A DNA stretch of 63,506 bases, counting the filler, from Squatina squatina (lineage: Eukaryota), in NCBI GenBank assembly GCA_031763465.1. It is 4 parts of 4 records of this genome, joined end to end, with 100 filler letters (N's around TTAATTAATTAA, not from the genome) between each part and the next. Parts side by side here need not be neighbours in the genome. Positions count along the whole stretch, not along the records: positions 17,832 to 36,053 come from JARFOE010000194.1; 3 more parts are not named here. One strand, 5' to 3'. The notes beneath the pieces are model-generated. The model saw only the letters and a program-made list of their open reading frames with translations. It searched no databases and was not told the origin of the DNA. The first letter of the stretch is position 1. Every line of letters starts with the position of its first letter. This document shows positions 17,732-63,080 of the stretch, piece by piece. Both the position numbers and the translations under genes were made by a program.

Positions 17732-17831
17732 NNNNNNNNNNNNNNNNNNNNNNNNNNNNNNNNNNNNNNNNNNNNTTAATTAATTAANNNNNNNNNNNNN
17801 NNNNNNNNNNNNNNNNNNNNNNNNNNNNNNN
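17732..17831. other. Artificial scaffold linker N44-TTAATTAATTAA-N44
   Basis: Palindromic 12-mer with stops in all six frames, centred in a 100-nt spacer. Identical at 36054 and 50355. Confidence 0.95.
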
Positions 17832-22596: not shown

Positions 22597-23198
22597 TTAG
22601 TTGAAGTTTGTTTTCCGTAAATGCCTGTTGGGAATCTCCAGGGCACTGACCTGCAGTGGCCACGAGCCGCCCATGATCCCCGCCTGTATGGCAACACCAA
22701 TCACCACCGCCAGATCGGGATCCACCGAGGTGTTGGGCTCCTTGTCGAAGAACTGGCGGATCACCCGGCGTATCCGCGGGATGCGTGTGGAGCCGCCGAC
22801 CAGCACTATTTCGTCCACCTCGTGTCGGTCCAGGTGACCATGGGACAGCACCTCCTCCACTGGCTCCAGGATCTTCTCAAAGAGGTCTCGGTTCAGCTCC
22901 TCAAAGAGATCCCTGGTCACTGTTTCCTCGAACAAAACTGCGTTAGTGCTGCCGCCGGCACCGTCGTCTCCTTCTCCTCCTCCATCACCGGACCGCCCGG
23001 GGTTCGGCAGGGACAGCGGGACCCGGATCAGCGCCGAGTCAGAGAGGGTCAGGTTCAGCTTGGCCGCTTCCACGGCTTGGCGCAGGTGGTACACGTCCTG
23101 CTTGTGGGAAGGCAGAGTTCCGTACCGCTGGTGTATCTGGTTAAGCAGGAACTGCAGCAACCGCTGGTTGAAGTCCTGGCCACCTAGCTGGTTATTTC
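22597..23198 (-). CDS. HSPA13: Heat shock 70 kDa protein 13 (STCH), last coding exon
   Basis: GNNQLGGQDFNQRLLQ...EIVLVGGSTRIPRIR...PNTSVDPDLAVV.GVAIQAG..GGSWPLQVSALEIPNRHLRKTNFN*, the C-terminus specific to HSPA13. ctcag| acceptor at 23199-23200. Confidence 0.96.
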
Positions 23199-23239
23199 CT
23201 GAGCAAATAAATCAATTCAGACAGTCATAACTTGGATGG

Positions 23240-26525: not shown

Positions 26526-26979
26526 AATTTGATATAGAATTAGAAAGGCTCAAGTATATAAAAGGAAAGTGAACATTAACGCGGTGCTATTGGCTTCTGT
26601 TTGTTCTCGCATTCACTGCACACTAACTCGGATCGAACTAATGAGTAGACACGGCCATTTCTGCCCGAAATAAACAAAGTGCTTAAGACGCTATAATGGG
26701 CAACCTTGAAACTGACGTTAATGCGAATGGATAACGCTTATCTTTTCTTCCTGATATTAACAACTGTCCCTTTTAAACAGTGGGGTATTACCCCTTTAAT
26801 TAGAAAGTGGTTGTGCCTGATGTTCCCCTTAATGTTCTTTGGCCGTGGGCGGCCACTTTAAGAGGATGCTCGGCCCATTCAAACCCTGGCAAGTGGCCTG
26901 TGCCGGAGTGCGCAGCCGCGCAGCTTAAAGTGAACACTGGCCGTGCCACCACCAGGCAGGGACGGGCGCTAAAACTCAC

Positions 26980-27138
26980 CATCTCCTCCGACAGAGCTTT
27001 GATGTACTTGCGCGCCATTCTTTTCTTCATGGTTTTGGAAATGGCGCGCATGGTTTTCCCCAGCCCGCTCCCGTTCTGTCCGGACTTGGGCGGATTCTGC
27101 TCCCTGGCACCTTCTGCCTCTTGCTCAACTTCACCCGG
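26980..27138 (-). CDS. SAMSN1: SAM/SH3 domain protein SAMSN1 (HACS1/SLy2), internal 159-nt exon
   Basis: ...SGQNGSGLGKTMRAISKTMKKRMARKYIKALSEEM matches recalled human GGLGKKMRAISWTMKKKVGKKYIKALSEE. gtgtag| and |gtgagt sites; lies between HSPA13 and NRIP1 as in other vertebrates. Confidence 0.9.
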
Positions 27139-27367: not shown

Positions 27368-27625
27368 CCAGACATGAACCTGGCTCCTCCTGGTTTCCCA
27401 GACTCCCCCTTGTCTCTCAGACATGAGCCAGACTCCTCCTGGTCTCCCAGACATGAGCCTGACTCCTCCTGGTTTCCCAGACATGAGCCTGACTCCTCCT
27501 GGTCTCCCAGACTCCTCCTGGTCTCCCAGACATAAGCCAGACTCCTCCTGGTCTTCCAGACATGGTCCTGACTCCTCCTGGTTTCCCAGACTCCCCCTGG
27601 TTTCCCAGACTCCTCCTAGACTCCC
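27368..27625 (+). repeat. Composite 30-bp/19-bp GC-rich minisatellite
   Basis: ACATGAGCC at 27421, 27451 and 27481 (30-bp period), interleaved with shorter CCAGACTCCTCCTGGTCTC units. Confidence 0.85.
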
Positions 27626-28819
27626 TGATCCAAAGCCCCGGATTCTGCTGGTTTCCTGGACCCAGAGCCCCCGACCCCAAAAATTAAGTACCAAAATGGG
27701 CATGGATAGTTTCCTGCTCAGGCACAAGACATCTGGATAATAATTAGCTATCCCGTTGGACTAAGAACCTGGAGTCTGTGAAAAATCAACTCAAAGTCCC
27801 CAACCTGGATTGCAACTGGGAGCTAATGCAAGAAGAAAAATGCCAAACGCGGACTTGGTAAAAACCCTGCGGTTGGTCAAACTCGGGCAACGTGGGCGCA
27901 ACAGCGAGGAAGCACAGATCGTCAAGATTCCACTTTTAAATTAAGAGAGAAATATATAAATAAATATCCCTGACCACATTCGAGAGCACTTCCCAGGGCA
28001 ACGAGGAGGAAGAATGTGGGGGTGGGGGGGTAGAAAAAAAAACGATGGGATCTTGGAAATAAAAATTGGTTAAAACACTTAAGAAAAACAGAACATTTAA
28101 CTTTCAAAATATACCCTGCTACCCACTTCTTCAGTGACAGGCCACACTGGCACACATAGTACAGACTGATTAAGTAATTAAAGTTAGATTATTAAGACAT
28201 TAAATTCTCTTTTTTTTCTCTCTTTTTTTTACTCATAATTTTTTTTAATAAACACATTTATCAATTTACACATTGTACAGTACTTAACATTTGACTGTTT
28301 AATGTTTCATTGATATTACATTGCCAACTCAATGCTCTTCAGACATACTTGTATGTCATTCCTGCAACAACTTGCAGGAGAAAAATGAATCTGAGTGTGT
28401 ACTTTGGGGCCAATCGCAGCTAAGTGTAACATACATTGGGAGCCAGTGGCACTGGCATGGGTCATGTGGACTATAAAAGCTACAAAGGATGGGACCACAC
28501 AACTCAATGGATTAACACACTGAGATAAACGTTATGAGTTGGCATAGAGCTTTACACGATGGGAATGCAACTCCGGAATTTGGGTACAGAGATCTGCACA
28601 CTCAATTTGTGGCTCTCACGGTTTTCCATCTATTACCTCTAATGGCTGTGAAATCATGTAGAATGCAAATTGAATGTTCTGACCTCCGTGCTCAAACTAC
28701 TGATATGTACTCCAATCACCCATAGCTTTGTGATGAGAGCGCTCGTTTGTAAAACTCACCTCACATCTGTTGAGATGCACCAGGATTTCAATCTGGGCTA
28801 AGCTTATGTTATGAAAGTT

Positions 28820-29638: not shown

Positions 29639-29726
29639 TCAATCGGGCTCCCGTTTTATCGCCACCACTTTCTCCAGGATCCCGTAGGCGCTTTTGCTCA
29701 GGTTCGGTGGGGGCGGAGCGTCGTGG
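29639..29726 (-). CDS. NRIP1: Nuclear receptor interacting protein 1 (RIP140), C-terminus
   Basis: ...SAYGILEKVVAIKREPD* resembles the RIP140 end (LTIKKESE). In frame with the middle segment; followed by an AT-rich 3' UTR. Confidence 0.75.
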
Positions 29727-30467
29727 NNNNNNNNNNNNNNNNNNNNNNNNNNNNNNNNNNNNNNNNNNNNNNNNNNNNNNNNNNNNNNNNNNNNNNNNNN
29801 NNNNNNNNNNNNNNNNNNNNNNNNNNNNNNNNNNNNNNNNNNNNNNNNNNNNNNNNNNNNNNNNNNNNNNNNNNNNNNNNNNNNNNNNNNNNNNNNNNNN
29901 NNNNNNNNNNNNNNNNNNNNNNNNNNNNNNNNNNNNNNNNNNNNNNNNNNNNNNNNNNNNNNNNNNNNNNNNNNNNNNNNNNNNNNNNNNNNNNNNNNNN
30001 NNNNNNNNNNNNNNNNNNNNNNNNNNNNNNNNNNNNNNNNNNNNNNNNNNNNNNNNNNNNNNNNNNNNNNNNNNNNNNNNNNNNNNNNNNNNNNNNNNNN
30101 NNNNNNNNNNNNNNNNNNNNNNNNNNNNNNNNNNNNNNNNNNNNNNNNNNNNNNNNNNNNNNNNNNNNNNNNNNNNNNNNNNNNNNNNNNNNNNNNNNNN
30201 NNNNNNNNNNNNNNNNNNNNNNNNNNNNNNNNNNNNNNNNNNNNNNNNNNNNNNNNNNNNNNNNNNNNNNNNNNNNNNNNNNNNNNNNNNNNNNNNNNNN
30301 NNNNNNNNNNNNNNNNNNNNNNNNNNNNNNNNNNNNNNNNNNNNNNNNNNNNNNNNNNNNNNNNNNNNNNNNNNNNNNNNNNNNNNNNNNNNNNNNNNNN
30401 NNNNNNNNNNNNNNNNNNNNNNNNNNNNNNNNNNNNNNNNNNNNNNNNNNNNNNNNNNNNNNNNNNN

Positions 30468-31233
30468 GGGAGAATCTTTCTCTTTTTGGGAATGTTACAG
30501 GGACTGTTGGATCCAGAGGTGGGCACCTGTGCCTCGACATGGCTGCCAGAGTTCCGATGCCGACTCAAGGTATAATTGTCCGAGGGGCCAGCGCTGTGCC
30601 GCAGCAGAAGTTGACTCAGAACACCTCCTTTCTGAGAGGAATGGGACAAGGCTGGAGACGAAGATAAAGGGGGAGAAACCATTTCTTGCTTCAGGTTCTC
30701 CAACGGGAAGGATGGGTGCTTGTGTTCGGGCCTGCTTGGCACTGGCAGCTGGCGATTGGCACTTTCTTCCAATGCTTGCGTGTTTGAGGAGAAGCCAGCC
30801 TCTTCCTCAACAGGCTCGGCCTTGACTTTGACCATGGATATGGGTTCTGTGAAGACGGCTTGCCCATTGCAGTAGTCCTCCGAAGGCTGCGCGATTGCCA
30901 AGCTCGGTGGTTCACCCTGCCTTCCATGCAAGTGACTCTTTAGGACCTTATCCTTCTCTGGAGTCCTCAGAAGGAGCTGAAGGACACTGCGTCTTTCAAG
31001 TAGGTTTTCGAGATCTGCGTTGGGAGTTGACGCTGCCTGGAGGCCTTGACTCTCCTGCCCGGTGCTGGGCTCGTGCAACATTGGCGGCTGAAAGCAAAGA
31101 GGGTCGCCCGACCTACCGAACAGGAGGCAACCTGAGGTCTCGCCTGCCCTGGCCTCCACAGGGCCCAGGGCAACATTCTTCTGCTCGATGTCCGCCTGGG
31201 AGGCCTCCGGAGACTTGTGGAAGCCAGTGTAAG
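30468..31233 (-). CDS. NRIP1: RIP140 middle segment of the single coding exon
   Basis: LENLLERRSVLQLLL, VKVKAEP, GVLSQLLL and PKKRK (LxxLL boxes and basic motif of RIP140). Confidence 0.92.
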
Positions 31234-32071
31234 NNNNNNNNNNNNNNNNNNNNNNNNNNNNNNNNNNNNNNNNNNNNNNNNNNNNNNNNNNNNNNNNNNN
31301 NNNNNNNNNNNNNNNNNNNNNNNNNNNNNNNNNNNNNNNNNNNNNNNNNNNNNNNNNNNNNNNNNNNNNNNNNNNNNNNNNNNNNNNNNNNNNNNNNNNN
31401 NNNNNNNNNNNNNNNNNNNNNNNNNNNNNNNNNNNNNNNNNNNNNNNNNNNNNNNNNNNNNNNNNNNNNNNNNNNNNNNNNNNNNNNNNNNNNNNNNNNN
31501 NNNNNNNNNNNNNNNNNNNNNNNNNNNNNNNNNNNNNNNNNNNNNNNNNNNNNNNNNNNNNNNNNNNNNNNNNNNNNNNNNNNNNNNNNNNNNNNNNNNN
31601 NNNNNNNNNNNNNNNNNNNNNNNNNNNNNNNNNNNNNNNNNNNNNNNNNNNNNNNNNNNNNNNNNNNNNNNNNNNNNNNNNNNNNNNNNNNNNNNNNNNN
31701 NNNNNNNNNNNNNNNNNNNNNNNNNNNNNNNNNNNNNNNNNNNNNNNNNNNNNNNNNNNNNNNNNNNNNNNNNNNNNNNNNNNNNNNNNNNNNNNNNNNN
31801 NNNNNNNNNNNNNNNNNNNNNNNNNNNNNNNNNNNNNNNNNNNNNNNNNNNNNNNNNNNNNNNNNNNNNNNNNNNNNNNNNNNNNNNNNNNNNNNNNNNN
31901 NNNNNNNNNNNNNNNNNNNNNNNNNNNNNNNNNNNNNNNNNNNNNNNNNNNNNNNNNNNNNNNNNNNNNNNNNNNNNNNNNNNNNNNNNNNNNNNNNNNN
32001 NNNNNNNNNNNNNNNNNNNNNNNNNNNNNNNNNNNNNNNNNNNNNNNNNNNNNNNNNNNNNNNNNNNNNNN

Positions 32072-32498
32072 CGCCCAGATGCTGCTGACGCGTCTGGGGC
32101 TGGCGGAGCGGGTGGAGTACCAGCCCTCGCAGCTCTCCGGCGGCCAGCAGCAGCGTGTCAGTATCGCACGCGCGCTGATGAACGGCGGTCAGGTGATCCT
32201 CGCAGATGAACCGACCGGGGCGCTCGACAGCCATTCGGGTGAAGAGGTGATGGCGATCCTTCACCAGCTTCGCGATCAGGGGCATACGGTCATCATCGTT
32301 ACCCACGATCCGCAGGTGGCTGCGCAGGCCGAGCGCATCATTGAGATCCGCGACGGAGAGCTGGTCAGCAACCCGCCGCCGCGTGAGTCCAGGGCAGCGG
32401 CGCCGAAAGAAGCGCTGCCGGCATCAACAGGCTGGGGGCAGTTCTCCAGCGGCTTTCGCGAGGCGCTGACCATGGCCTGGCTGGCGATGGCGGCCAAC
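32072..32498 (+). CDS. macB: Bacterial macrolide export ABC transporter MacB fragment (Enterobacteriaceae-like; probable contaminant)
   Basis: [68 protein letters not shown]...[15 protein letters not shown]. Carries the ABC signature, Walker B and H-loop, nearly identical to recalled E. coli/Salmonella MacB. No decay; CpG-rich codons. Confidence 0.95.
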
Positions 32499-33433
32499 CT
32501 CTCGCTGGCTGAGGCGGGTGTGGCCCGGGCGCCCAGCGAGTGCTCGCGGGAGTACTGCTGAAGCTGGGTGTCGCTGGAGAGCAGTAGGGCCAGCTGGCTG
32601 CAAGCGACACTGGGCTTGGGCGAGCCGGGGGTCCGGGCTCCATTCTCCACCATGTTGGCCACGGCCCGCAGCCTGGCGGAGCAGGAGATGGGCTCTCCGA
32701 CCGGCCTCGCGTCGCCAGGCGAGCGGCAAAGTCTCCGATGGTCGGCGGGGCTGTGGTAAAGGCTCTCGTTCTCCTTGGGGAGGTGGTCGGCCTGGCTGTG
32801 GTCCCTGTTCTTGAGCAGGGCCCTCAGGTGGCTGGACACCAGCCCGTAGCTCCTCAGATCTTCCTCCGGCGAAGAGGCGCGACTGCCCGGGGATGCCAGC
32901 TGGCCAGGCCTGGGAGCGCTGCCGTGCTGGGACAGTGCTACGTTCTGCAGCCTGGAGCTGAAAGACTGCAGCAAGGAGGCCAGCAATGTGCTGTGCTGCT
33001 GCTGCTGCTGCTCTTGGGTTTTGCCCAGTGCGCCTGGTCTGTTGGTGGCCGGGCTGCCCTCTTCCTCACTGGGCTCCAGCCCGTGCCCGCACACCCTTCT
33101 CCTCTTGGCCCCCTCCCATGCCTCGGCTTGGAGTAGCCTGGCCTTCTTCACGTTCAGCGCGGAGGCAGCTCTGGCAGCCCTCTGGTGAGAGGTGATGGGC
33201 AGCTGGCGCGAGGGAGAGGTGGCCAAGCCCTCCCCTCCTCCTCCTCCTCCTCCTCCTCTGCTGCTGCGACTGGCGGAGGTCCAGCAGGCTGCACTTTCGT
33301 CTTCGGAGACACGTTTGGTGGACGGGATGCCCACGCTGCCCCCTGGCGCTCGATGCATTAATACACTCTCGAGGTAAGTTAACACGACTGAATCCTGGTG
33401 CATCTCAGAGCAAAGCTCCTCTCCATGGGTCAT
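32477..33433 (-). CDS. NRIP1: RIP140 N-terminal segment
   Basis: Starts [22 protein letters not shown]; contains [55 protein letters not shown] and ASERLAA. Confidence 0.96.
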
Positions 33434-34002
33434 GTTCAANNNNNNNNNNNNNNNNNNNNNNNNNNNNNNNNNNNNNNNNNNNNNNNNNNNNNNNNNNNNN
33501 NNNNNNNNNNNNNNNNNNNNNNNNNNNNNNNNNNNNNNNAGGACAGGATTAGGGGATAAAATCGAGGCGAACAGACTCAGACATGGACAGATTGCACACA
33601 ACATTAATCTCGAGCAAACGCAGAGGACAGAGGAGGCTGTTTCAGGAAGGTCAGGAGGGTCAAGCTGATTAACTCCCCAGGCTTTGGCAACCGCTGGGCC
33701 CAGGCCCGGGGTTACTTGAGTTCACAGAGAGCCATTGACATTCAGCTCCACCACTTACTCATTAACGCATCAGCGGGCGATCGGAGACTATTTAAAGGGC
33801 CAGCTGCCTTAAAGAAAAGTACAAAGATAGACTGAGGAACTAATATGTTGCTGCCCTTTGGCACGGCTCAGGATCAAAAGGAAGAGATTCTGCCCATTTT
33901 AAATTAAGATTTTTTTTTAAATGGCCATTACGCCGTGAACTTGCGAAGATGAAGCTTTGATTAAATCAAATGGTCCCATTTTATTTTTCAAAACGAGATT
34001 TA

Positions 34003-36053: not shown

Positions 36054-36153
36054 NNNNNNNNNNNNNNNNNNNNNNNNNNNNNNNNNNNNNNNNNNNNTTA
36101 ATTAATTAANNNNNNNNNNNNNNNNNNNNNNNNNNNNNNNNNNNNNNNNNNNN
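36054..36153. other. Artificial scaffold linker N44-TTAATTAATTAA-N44
   Basis: Identical structure to 17732-17831. Confidence 0.95.
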
Positions 36154-44097: not shown

Positions 44098-44397
44098 TCA
44101 AACCTCAGAGCTGTCGCTGTGATAACTCTGTGCAGTCATGGCCTCGTTGCTGGGTGATTTCATGTAGTCTGCTTTCTTATCTGATTGCTTCCTGCGTTTC
44201 AGCAAGAGGACGACGATAATAATGACACAAATAGCTAGTAATAAGGCAGCGATCCCTCCAATAATGGGAACATTGCCATCTTCGTCGCCTCGGTCATTTG
44301 GTGACCTAGCAACAGCTCCTTCAGGGAAGATCTCTTCCTCAACAACCTGCTTCCGCCTGAGGATGTCTGGAGCGGTGTGGTGACTCAGCTGGCCCTT
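44098..44397 (-). CDS. FREM2: FRAS1-related extracellular matrix protein (FREM2, or TM-bearing FREM3 paralog): TM helix and cytoplasmic tail
   Basis: VPIIGGIAALLLAICVIIIVVLLL-KRRK...SNEAMTAQSYHSDSSEV* versus the recalled FREM2 end SSEPMVPPQSHHNDSSEV (PDZ-binding SEV). Paralog and 5' boundary are uncertain. Confidence 0.7.
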   Translation of the reverse strand, partial: KGQLSHHTAPDILRRKQVVEEEIFPEGAVARSPNDRGDEDGNVPIIGGIAALLLAICVIIIVVLLLKRRKQSDKKADYMKSPSNEAMTAQSYHSDSSEV

Positions 44398-45579
44398 CCA
44401 TATCAGGAGATGAAGGCAAGCCATGTCTGGAAGAGACAATGGCATAAATGGTACATAAAGGTAAGGCCCGATGGCAGATCTCAGAACTGAGGCCTCCAGA
44501 GCAGCACAGCAAAGGTTTCATGGGGACAAAACAAGGAGGAATAGCCATCGTTAAATCTGTGCCATGTCACTCACCCTCATCCTCAGGGGGAGCATGACAC
44601 CTCCCTTGCAATGGGCTGACCAATCTCTGCGTCGATGATTCCGGTCATATAATTTTCCAGGACTGACAATTGTACCTCCTCTCCCTCCTCAGCTCCTCCC
44701 TGATTTTGCTGTGCCCTGATGGCCGCCAGTTTAGCCTGCATATATAAGGACAAGTGCATTAAAGCCTACCCTTCGCTTTTAACTTGCAACTTCATGTCAT
44801 GGGCAAGAGGCTGTGTGCAATGCCCACTGGGCGCGATTAAGCAGGGTTCCACTTTAAGCACGTCATCAAGAATCTGAATTCTATGGCACATTACAAATGA
44901 GACACTTAGACATGAGGTGGCCATTGGTGAAAGAGTCAGACTNNNNNNNNNNNNNNNNNNNNNNNNNNNNNNNNNNNNNNNNNNNNNNNNNNNNNNNNNN
45001 NNNNNNNNNNNNNNNNNNNNNNNNNNNNNNNNNNNNNNNNNNTGGGATATTATCCAGGTGGTACATGAGGCGAGGGAAGCTGCTTTGCCTGCCTGTGTCG
45101 GATTCGAGGTGATGGTCAGTGGCCGAGAGGAGGTGGAGAGACTTTTACTGAGATTGCAGGTTGGTGATAAGTTCTTAGGTGTATTCCGAAGAGGTGGTGG
45201 TCTCACTCTTAAACCTGCCGGTTTATATTGCGGACAAGGTGCTAATAAAAATGTTGTTTTTCTTGTTAATAGCAGGAGTCTCACTTACCCTACAATTAGC
45301 AATGAGACTACCTGACACCTATTTTCATTTGTGAGTAGTAGGTTAGATTTCTATATTTTCACAGAGAACATCCAGTCAAGGTTCTTTAAGACTTTAAAGG
45401 AAGGACATGTTTTGACTTTGATTACATCATCTGTTATTTCCCCTCAGATGCAAATATTTCATTGTGTTATGGTGCAGGAAAGATGCATTTGTGCCTGTTA
45501 CAATGTTTTTGTCCCTGTACTGCTGTCACCTGCACTCTGGAGAACGGACGAGGGGGATTACATTGGAACAGTTACAAAA

Positions 45580-50354: not shown

Positions 50355-50454
50355 NNNNNNNNNNNNNNNNNNNNNNNNNNNNNNNNNNNNNNNNNNNNTT
50401 AATTAATTAANNNNNNNNNNNNNNNNNNNNNNNNNNNNNNNNNNNNNNNNNNNN
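50355..50454. other. Artificial scaffold linker N44-TTAATTAATTAA-N44
   Basis: Identical structure to 17732-17831. Confidence 0.95.
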
Positions 50455-62682: not shown

Positions 62683-63080
62683 CGGCGGTTGGACTCAGCG
62701 CGTGCGCGTGCCCGCGTTCCGCGGCATGTGTCCCGCGTGTTCTCCCGCCGCCGAGCGCGGTTGTCAGTGTCACTGCTGGGGGAGTGCGCGCTCGCGAGAT
62801 GCGCGCGGCCACGTGTTGCTACCGCGCTGATTCAGTTTCAAAGCGCGCGCGCGCGCGCCGCTGCACTCAGAAGGCCGAGCGAGCGCGGGCGGGCGAGTGA
62901 AAGCGGCGGTGGCGGATAAACAGAGAGTGGCAGCTTCATCGCATTTGTGTCACGATTTCCCCAACCTCCCCCCACCACCCAACCCGCTTCGTTCCCATCT
63001 CATCTGTGCTCAACTCTTCTCTTACTCCCTTTTTCAGCGTAACCCGAAGACAGGCAGCGTTTTGTCCGGCCAGTATTCAG
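62683..63080 (+). promoter_or_regulatory. CpG island; candidate promoter and non-coding first exon
   Basis: Very CpG-dense 62683-62915 including a (GC)n run, followed by the donor-like CAG|GTAATA at 63080. Gene not identifiable. Confidence 0.55.

Follow-up and report, generated by a model that had tools for sequence, protein, structure and literature searches.

An Enterobacter macB fragment fused to a shark NRIP1 coding exon, very likely as an artefact

NRIP1 and the macB piece

The window, that is, the whole stretch of Squatina squatina DNA analysed here (63,506 nt), contains the gene for NRIP1 (RIP140) in three pieces, and an internal fragment of a bacterial macB gene abuts the first of them (Table 1). 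The window consists of 48 sequence pieces with a median length of 1045 nt, mostly parted by gaps of 100 N, as in a heavily gapped vertebrate scaffold. Three linkers (17732–17831, 36054–36153, and 50355–50454) are composed of 44 N, the 12-mer TTAATTAATTAA, and another 44 N. The 12-mer, which carries stops in all frames, is man-made and is not to be read as genome; among the papers listed by a literature search for it, none dealt with scaffolding linkers.

Table 1. Coordinates of the features at the NRIP1 locus
Feature	Position	Strand	Evidence or remark
NRIP1 C-terminal piece and stop codon (whale shark 1216–1238)	29639–29726	-	open, same frame (29710–29642)
Sized gap, 741 N	29727–30467		inside NRIP1, in frame
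NRIP1 middle piece (whale shark 705–954)	30468–31233	-	open, same frame (31231–30467)
Sized gap, 838 N	31234–32071		left of the macB piece; inside NRIP1
Internal Enterobacter macB fragment	32072–32498	+	Pfam, PDB MacB match, genus-wide DNA comparison
5' part of the fragment, allele type A	32072–32378	+	0 differences from an X13 contig over 307 nt; 3 from G040 (L003)
A/B allele switch, common 21-nt run	32358–32378	+	type A and type B overlap
3' part of the fragment, allele type B	32358–32497	+	0 differences from an X2 contig over 32358–32489
Junction overlap	32477–32497		Enterobacter macB on +; LAAIASQ in the NRIP1 frame on -
NRIP1 codons 1–319, from the ATG at 33433	32477–33433	-	Pfam, whale shark alignment

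All three NRIP1 pieces are in frame -2. The Pfam model NRIP1_repr_1 matches the host side of the joint with an E value of 9.9e-59. The closest NRIP1 is that of whale shark (P0001/P0121), with an identity of 62–68% by alignment and 68% by BLASTP. This value is far above those of the other 119 matches listed (41–45%, mostly tetrapods), indicating that the host sequence comes from a cartilaginous fish; protein searches found no shark NRIP1 other than that of whale shark. In its N-terminal part, the gene carries poly-Gln and poly-Gly codon runs (32986–33023 and 33223–33272) that exceed those of whale shark in length.

As assembled, NRIP1 would be a protein of 385 residues, 319 from the host and 66 from the antisense strand of macB, ending at the stop codon 32276–32278. 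A reading of this locus made from the sequence alone (hereafter, the sequence-only reading) had described macB as antisense to and continuous with NRIP1, NRIP1 as truncated at the 32276 stop, and the gene as intact past the next gap. The present analysis bears out all three statements: no N lies at the joint, NRIP1 runs on the minus strand, and the middle and C-terminal pieces are open and in frame. The NRIP1 gene of a related shark, which the same reading had proposed to inspect, is intact in whale shark and encodes 1238 residues. We predict that the real NRIP1 of the present shark is also intact.

The macB piece starts at the first base past the 838-N gap, and the plus frame from 32073 is open across it. 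Pfam ABC_tran matches the piece with an E value of 1.6e-11, and all of its 142 residues align with residues 125–268 of E. coli MacB (5nik_J, E value of 1.3e-64). This part of the protein comprises the ABC signature, Walker B, the H-loop (VTHD), and the linker to a point immediately ahead of the first membrane segment. The open frame, the Pfam match, and the alignment agree with the earlier description of a 427-nt intact MacB segment carrying ABC motifs. The same description included the start of the permease; the MacB content stands, but the piece reaches only the edge of the permease part and ends short of "KMRTLLTMLG", the next stretch in bacterial MacB. The piece possesses neither a start nor Walker A, and its left end meets the N gap. 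With this content, it is an incomplete MacB gene without the full nucleotide-binding domain and permease, which could not work as a pump. No mobile-element ends and no terminal or target-site repeats of note were seen at the piece.

The bacterial donor

Comparison across the genus Enterobacter showed that 79 of the 81 genomes match the macB piece at E values of 1e-60 or below, with the best identity of 95% (G040). The identity is 79% to macB of Klebsiella pneumoniae and 75% to that of E. coli. A search against modern Enterobacter- or Klebsiella-type genomes had been proposed as a check in the sequence-only reading, and its outcome points to Enterobacter. An exact 52-nt pattern from the piece was found in two Enterobacter genomes, with about 90% identity, and a search with a short exact stretch of the 3' part recovered three metagenome contigs with 91–94% identity over the compared length. 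No contig matched all 427 nt in one piece (95% for the best species representative and 91–94% for the metagenome contigs), and plasmid collections contained nothing close to the piece over its full length. A eukaryotic ABC transporter was also considered as the origin and was rejected, because the PDB matches to ABCB are far weaker than those to MacB and the DNA is that of Enterobacter.

The macB gene belongs to the macAB operon, which encodes the MacAB–TolC ABC efflux pump, and one of the loci compared (L024) has a complete macB downstream of a MacA-like frame. The piece resembles Enterobacter macB over the aligned residues (E. coli numbering) but, unlike the full gene, represents only an internal third of a kilobase-scale gene, devoid of the start, Walker A, and the membrane domain.

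The piece shows no decay. Its codons differ from those of the best representative at 16 synonymous and 4 non-synonymous positions, with no stop and no indel, and from those of the second-best representative at 26 synonymous and 1 non-synonymous positions. In a comparison with 24 loci, from which L021 was omitted as a duplicate of L002 and in which L023 lacked the first 42 nt, only one of the 427 letters (32429, silent) was absent from all the loci, and this letter is present in a contig of a public sequencing run (X2 record 25). The observed/expected CpG ratio of the piece is 1.03, compared to 1.04–1.08 for the bacterial alleles and 0.56 and 0.51 for the host exon pieces. Nothing in the piece points to a past in a methylated vertebrate genome, in agreement with the lack of decay claimed earlier.

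The differences between the piece and individual Enterobacter loci are unevenly distributed. Three differences from the locus of the species representative G040 (L003) lie in 32072–32372 and 19 lie after it, whereas L004, L023, and L024 exhibit 23–32 differences before that point and 2–4 after it. Public runs were also compared with the contig containing macB and NRIP1: 24 were listed, and 20 contain part of it (at most 0.23 of its words). The eight runs examined in detail cover the macB part only; the shark side is absent from them, so that the end of their cover at 32498 says nothing on the joint. An X13 contig (record 9) shows 11 differences over 32072–32437, all of which lie at or after 32379 according to the depth column. 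X2 record 25 shows two differences over 32340–32489, placed at 32350 and 32357 by depth arithmetic. In addition, contigs of X11 tile 32072–32281 with no difference, and 32463–32497 is identical to contigs of X3 and X11. Each base up to 32497 is thus found unchanged in present-day bacterial contigs, split over two allele types, A and B. Two modern Enterobacter alleles are therefore joined in the macB piece as a mosaic, and their types are close to the species representatives G040 and G011.

Types A and B overlap in a common run of 21 nt, where the piece switches from one to the other. Among the matches listed for eight of the 24 public runs, no contig agrees with the piece on both sides of this switch. 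The switch may plausibly have arisen when two contaminants were assembled into one sequence, or by natural recombination between species. L003 and L004 share six identical runs of at least 21 nt, amounting to 40% of the bases. Given these runs and the plausibility of natural recombinants, the switch at a 21-nt run speaks only weakly for a k-mer process. Comparison of the rest of the window with three Enterobacter genomes revealed no other Enterobacter DNA, and heavy contamination is thus not evident here.

The joint and its origin

The sequence contains only one joint, at the right end of the macB piece. Identity to the bacterial sequence stops at 32497/32498 in every locus compared, at 32498 where the allele has C. 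In seven of the eight public runs, which are not shark runs and display only the bacterial continuation, contigs reaching this position continue as macB. The sequence-only reading had stated that RIP140 is replaced after ASERLAA. The bacterial piece is indeed found there, but the host sequence probably continues through IASQ to 32477. The homologues read RLAAIANQK in whale shark and RLAAMASQK in coelacanth and bichir at this site. The codons for LAAIA (32483–32497) encode the whale shark residues, and the next whale shark residue is N, not S. A glutamine two residues past the last alanine is conserved in 10 of the 11 homologues without the tetrapod "MAR" motif, two of which are the same whale shark gene; the other form, that of tetrapods, accounts for 162 of the 177 NRIP1 proteins and is uninformative on this glutamine. 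The residue after the glutamine is lysine in whale shark, coelacanth, and bichir and alanine in the window, and the overlap is therefore bounded at 32477.

A randomly placed joint would encode LAAIA in the correct frame with a chance of about 1.8e-6, to be multiplied by 0.028 for the glutamine. On the grounds of these sequences, the joint is shown to be homology-guided. The host and the bacterium probably share 21–22 nt (at least about 15 from the residues identical to whale shark, 21–22 if the host has S-Q like coelacanth and bichir, and 22 if the donor has C at 32498), a length deduced from protein homologues, so that third codon positions could differ.

The lengths across the gaps were compared with the whale shark gene. 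From the glutamine codon at 32477 to the first aligned codon past the 838-N gap there are 415 codons, compared to 403 in whale shark. This span is composed of the gap, 405 bacteria-only bases, and 2 host bases, and is in frame. Across the second gap, 252 codons separate the aligned anchors, compared to 261 in whale shark. The size predicted for the gap beside macB is near 1207 for an added insertion and near 802 for a replacement, and the size seen is 838; the macB piece stands in place of missing NRIP1. Two in-frame gaps would arise by chance in one of nine cases. Their occurrence suggests that the gap sizes were projected from the intact gene of a relative and that the bacterial overhang was subtracted. 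If so, the sizes fit a misjoin but provide no independent evidence on the allele of this animal.

A macB piece is indeed fused to NRIP1 in the assembled sequence, and this fusion is very likely an artefact. The joint is very likely not a real biological feature, and the macB piece very likely belongs to a contaminating bacterium. A misassembly of contaminant DNA at a host contig end had already been proposed. It agrees with the near-identity to living Enterobacter, the lack of decay, and the retention of frame and length, and the location at a contig end agrees with the start of the piece at the 838-N gap in a window of short pieces. The donor genus, the two-allele mosaic, and the likely common stretch of 21–22 nt, which would explain the site of the joint, are added by the present analysis.

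We consider it most likely that the chimeric contig end was produced by a graph misjoin of Enterobacter and shark NRIP1 sequences in a fragmented short-read assembly. A section of PMC6736328 (section 22) describes that SPAdes, which builds iterative de Bruijn graphs from k = 21, fuses sequences that have a common word near the end of coverage. In the account given there, the genuine continuations have been trimmed away or are lacking, what remains is condensed to a single edge, and this edge is handed to larger k; k values below 29 sharply raise such fusion errors. The number of 21-mers expected to be shared by chance between a host with an assumed size of 3.5 Gb and a 4.8-Mb bacterium is about 7,600, and the corresponding number for k = 31 is 0.007.

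The misjoin may be pictured as follows. Low-coverage Enterobacter DNA likely contaminated the sample. Host coverage would have been thinned in the NRIP1 exon. High GC marks both the exon (0.66 over 32499–33439) and the macB piece (0.67), and the exon is interrupted by two gaps, as would be expected of a region with falling coverage. With k as small as 21, the host and bacterial paths would have met in the common word. With the true continuations short or absent, these would have been trimmed, and the remaining edges condensed to one contig and passed to larger k. During scaffolding, the contig would then have been positioned from its host portion and the gap reduced by the length of the bacterial overhang that did not align, so that the frame and the length would have been kept. 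The allele switch at the 21-nt run would fit the same process acting on two contaminating Enterobacter types. The joint would resemble the SPAdes case of PMC6736328 (section 22) in that unrelated sequences are probably connected at a common word near the end of coverage. It differs in that the case presented there concerns two RNA-seq transcripts, whereas a host genome and a contaminant genome are involved here.

The main rival to the graph misjoin, and likewise an artefact, is a library chimera, in which PCR template switching or mis-priming would have connected a shark fragment with an Enterobacter fragment at the common stretch, and the single molecule so formed would have extended a low-coverage contig end once sequenced. 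A match of about 15 nt would be enough for this process, which would explain the homology-guided joint equally well and would fit a contig end beside a coverage gap. However, a rare physical chimera would be needed exactly where coverage ends, and the second switch, from allele to allele in the 21-nt run, would be left unexplained unless the donor is a natural recombinant. We thus regard the library chimera as unlikely, although worth serious consideration.

Another artefact to be weighed is that the two sequences were connected through a short exact overlap not in a k-mer graph but afterwards, during gap filling, contig merging, or reference-guided patching. The scaffold has been post-processed, as seen from the sized gaps, the 100-N gaps, and the three linkers, and some assemblers glue tips on overlaps of at least 8 nt (PMC6736328). 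In contrast, no suffix–prefix overlap of at least 4 nt was found across any of the 47 gaps in the window, indicating no other overlap-based merging there. A later-step join is accordingly quite improbable in our estimation.

Microhomology is also a mark of end-joining repair. The overlap, together with the joint being free of N, would therefore fit a real and very recent insertion, in which Enterobacter macB entered the shark DNA (in the germ line or the sampled tissue) by microhomology-mediated repair and truncated one NRIP1 allele. Several findings speak against it. The piece exhibits no decay and no CpG loss, though a very recent event would show none. Its letters are identical to those of bacterial contigs from runs on soil, root, wastewater, and other material, and they combine two Enterobacter types in a mosaic. 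Ends of mobile elements were not seen, the far joint is missing, either hidden by or absent at the gap, and the remaining NRIP1 pieces are open and keep the frame, unlike a dead gene. Fixation would be unlikely, since Nrip1 knockout mice are infertile according to a statement in PMC1617106 (citing White 2000), and cross-kingdom contamination at contig flanks is a common pattern in the account of PMC7218494 cited here. We hold a real insertion to be the least probable of the explanations, with a very slight chance of being correct. The lack of decay, the two-allele mosaic, and the single joint thus uphold the earlier judgement that a real horizontal insertion is far less likely than contamination.

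Known bacteria-to-animal insertions resemble the present case in that bacterial sequence is contiguous with animal sequence. They are endosymbiont-derived or ancient and shared across species, whereas the present case shows a free-living enteric donor, a modern sequence, and one visible joint. Among the papers listed by a thin search of the literature, none had a title dealing with bacterial DNA within a gene of a shark, which is no proof that the case is unreported.

The closest parallels are found among contaminated assemblies. According to PMC7218494, contaminants occur as short contigs, at the flanks of longer ones, and as N-flanked parts of scaffolds; examples detected by Conterminator are human NT_187580, which ends in Acidithiobacillus sequence, and C. 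elegans chromosome X, which carries E. coli sequence. A passage of PMC10898089 states that FCS-GX classes terminal inter-kingdom chimeras as "TRIM" and that chimeras are under-reported. As in these cases, near-identical bacterial DNA is fused at a host contig end here. The macB piece differs in its length of 427 nt, compared to 4–18 kb, and in its location inside a coding exon, where the likely overlap is readable from the host protein.

A gapless joint between bacterial and vertebrate sequence in an exon can thus come from one common 21-mer, and thousands of such words are expected per genome pair. The joint described here is short enough to evade contamination screens, and annotation would turn it into a truncated NRIP1 or a spurious gene transfer. 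Any further foreign pieces in the shark assembly deserve equal suspicion. Were the insertion real, it would represent a rare and very recent case of bacterial DNA integrating into a vertebrate gene on which fertility depends in mice, caught before decay.

Other features of the window

An Hsp70-family exon (22597–23211, minus strand) and an SLy/SPIDER-domain exon (26803–27138, minus strand) lie within 11 kb together with NRIP1 (29639–33433, minus strand). We take the two exons to be HSPA13-like and SAMSN1-like, respectively, and the order of the three genes presumably recalls that of HSPA13, SAMSN1, and NRIP1 on human chromosome 21 (21q). The genes are squeezed together, probably because most of the intervening DNA is missing from the scaffold. 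Short tandem repeats at 27368–27660 adjoin the SLy-domain exon and encode repeated peptides in several frames.

An open frame on the minus strand at 44101–44517 contains a single membrane segment and a basic stop-transfer run. No Pfam family matched it above the cut-off, and the PDB hits were only weak; its layout resembles that of an exon of a type I membrane protein. A CpG island at 62683–62950, with an observed/expected ratio of up to 1.47, a GC content of about 0.7, and CG runs, is likely the promoter or the first exon of the next gene.
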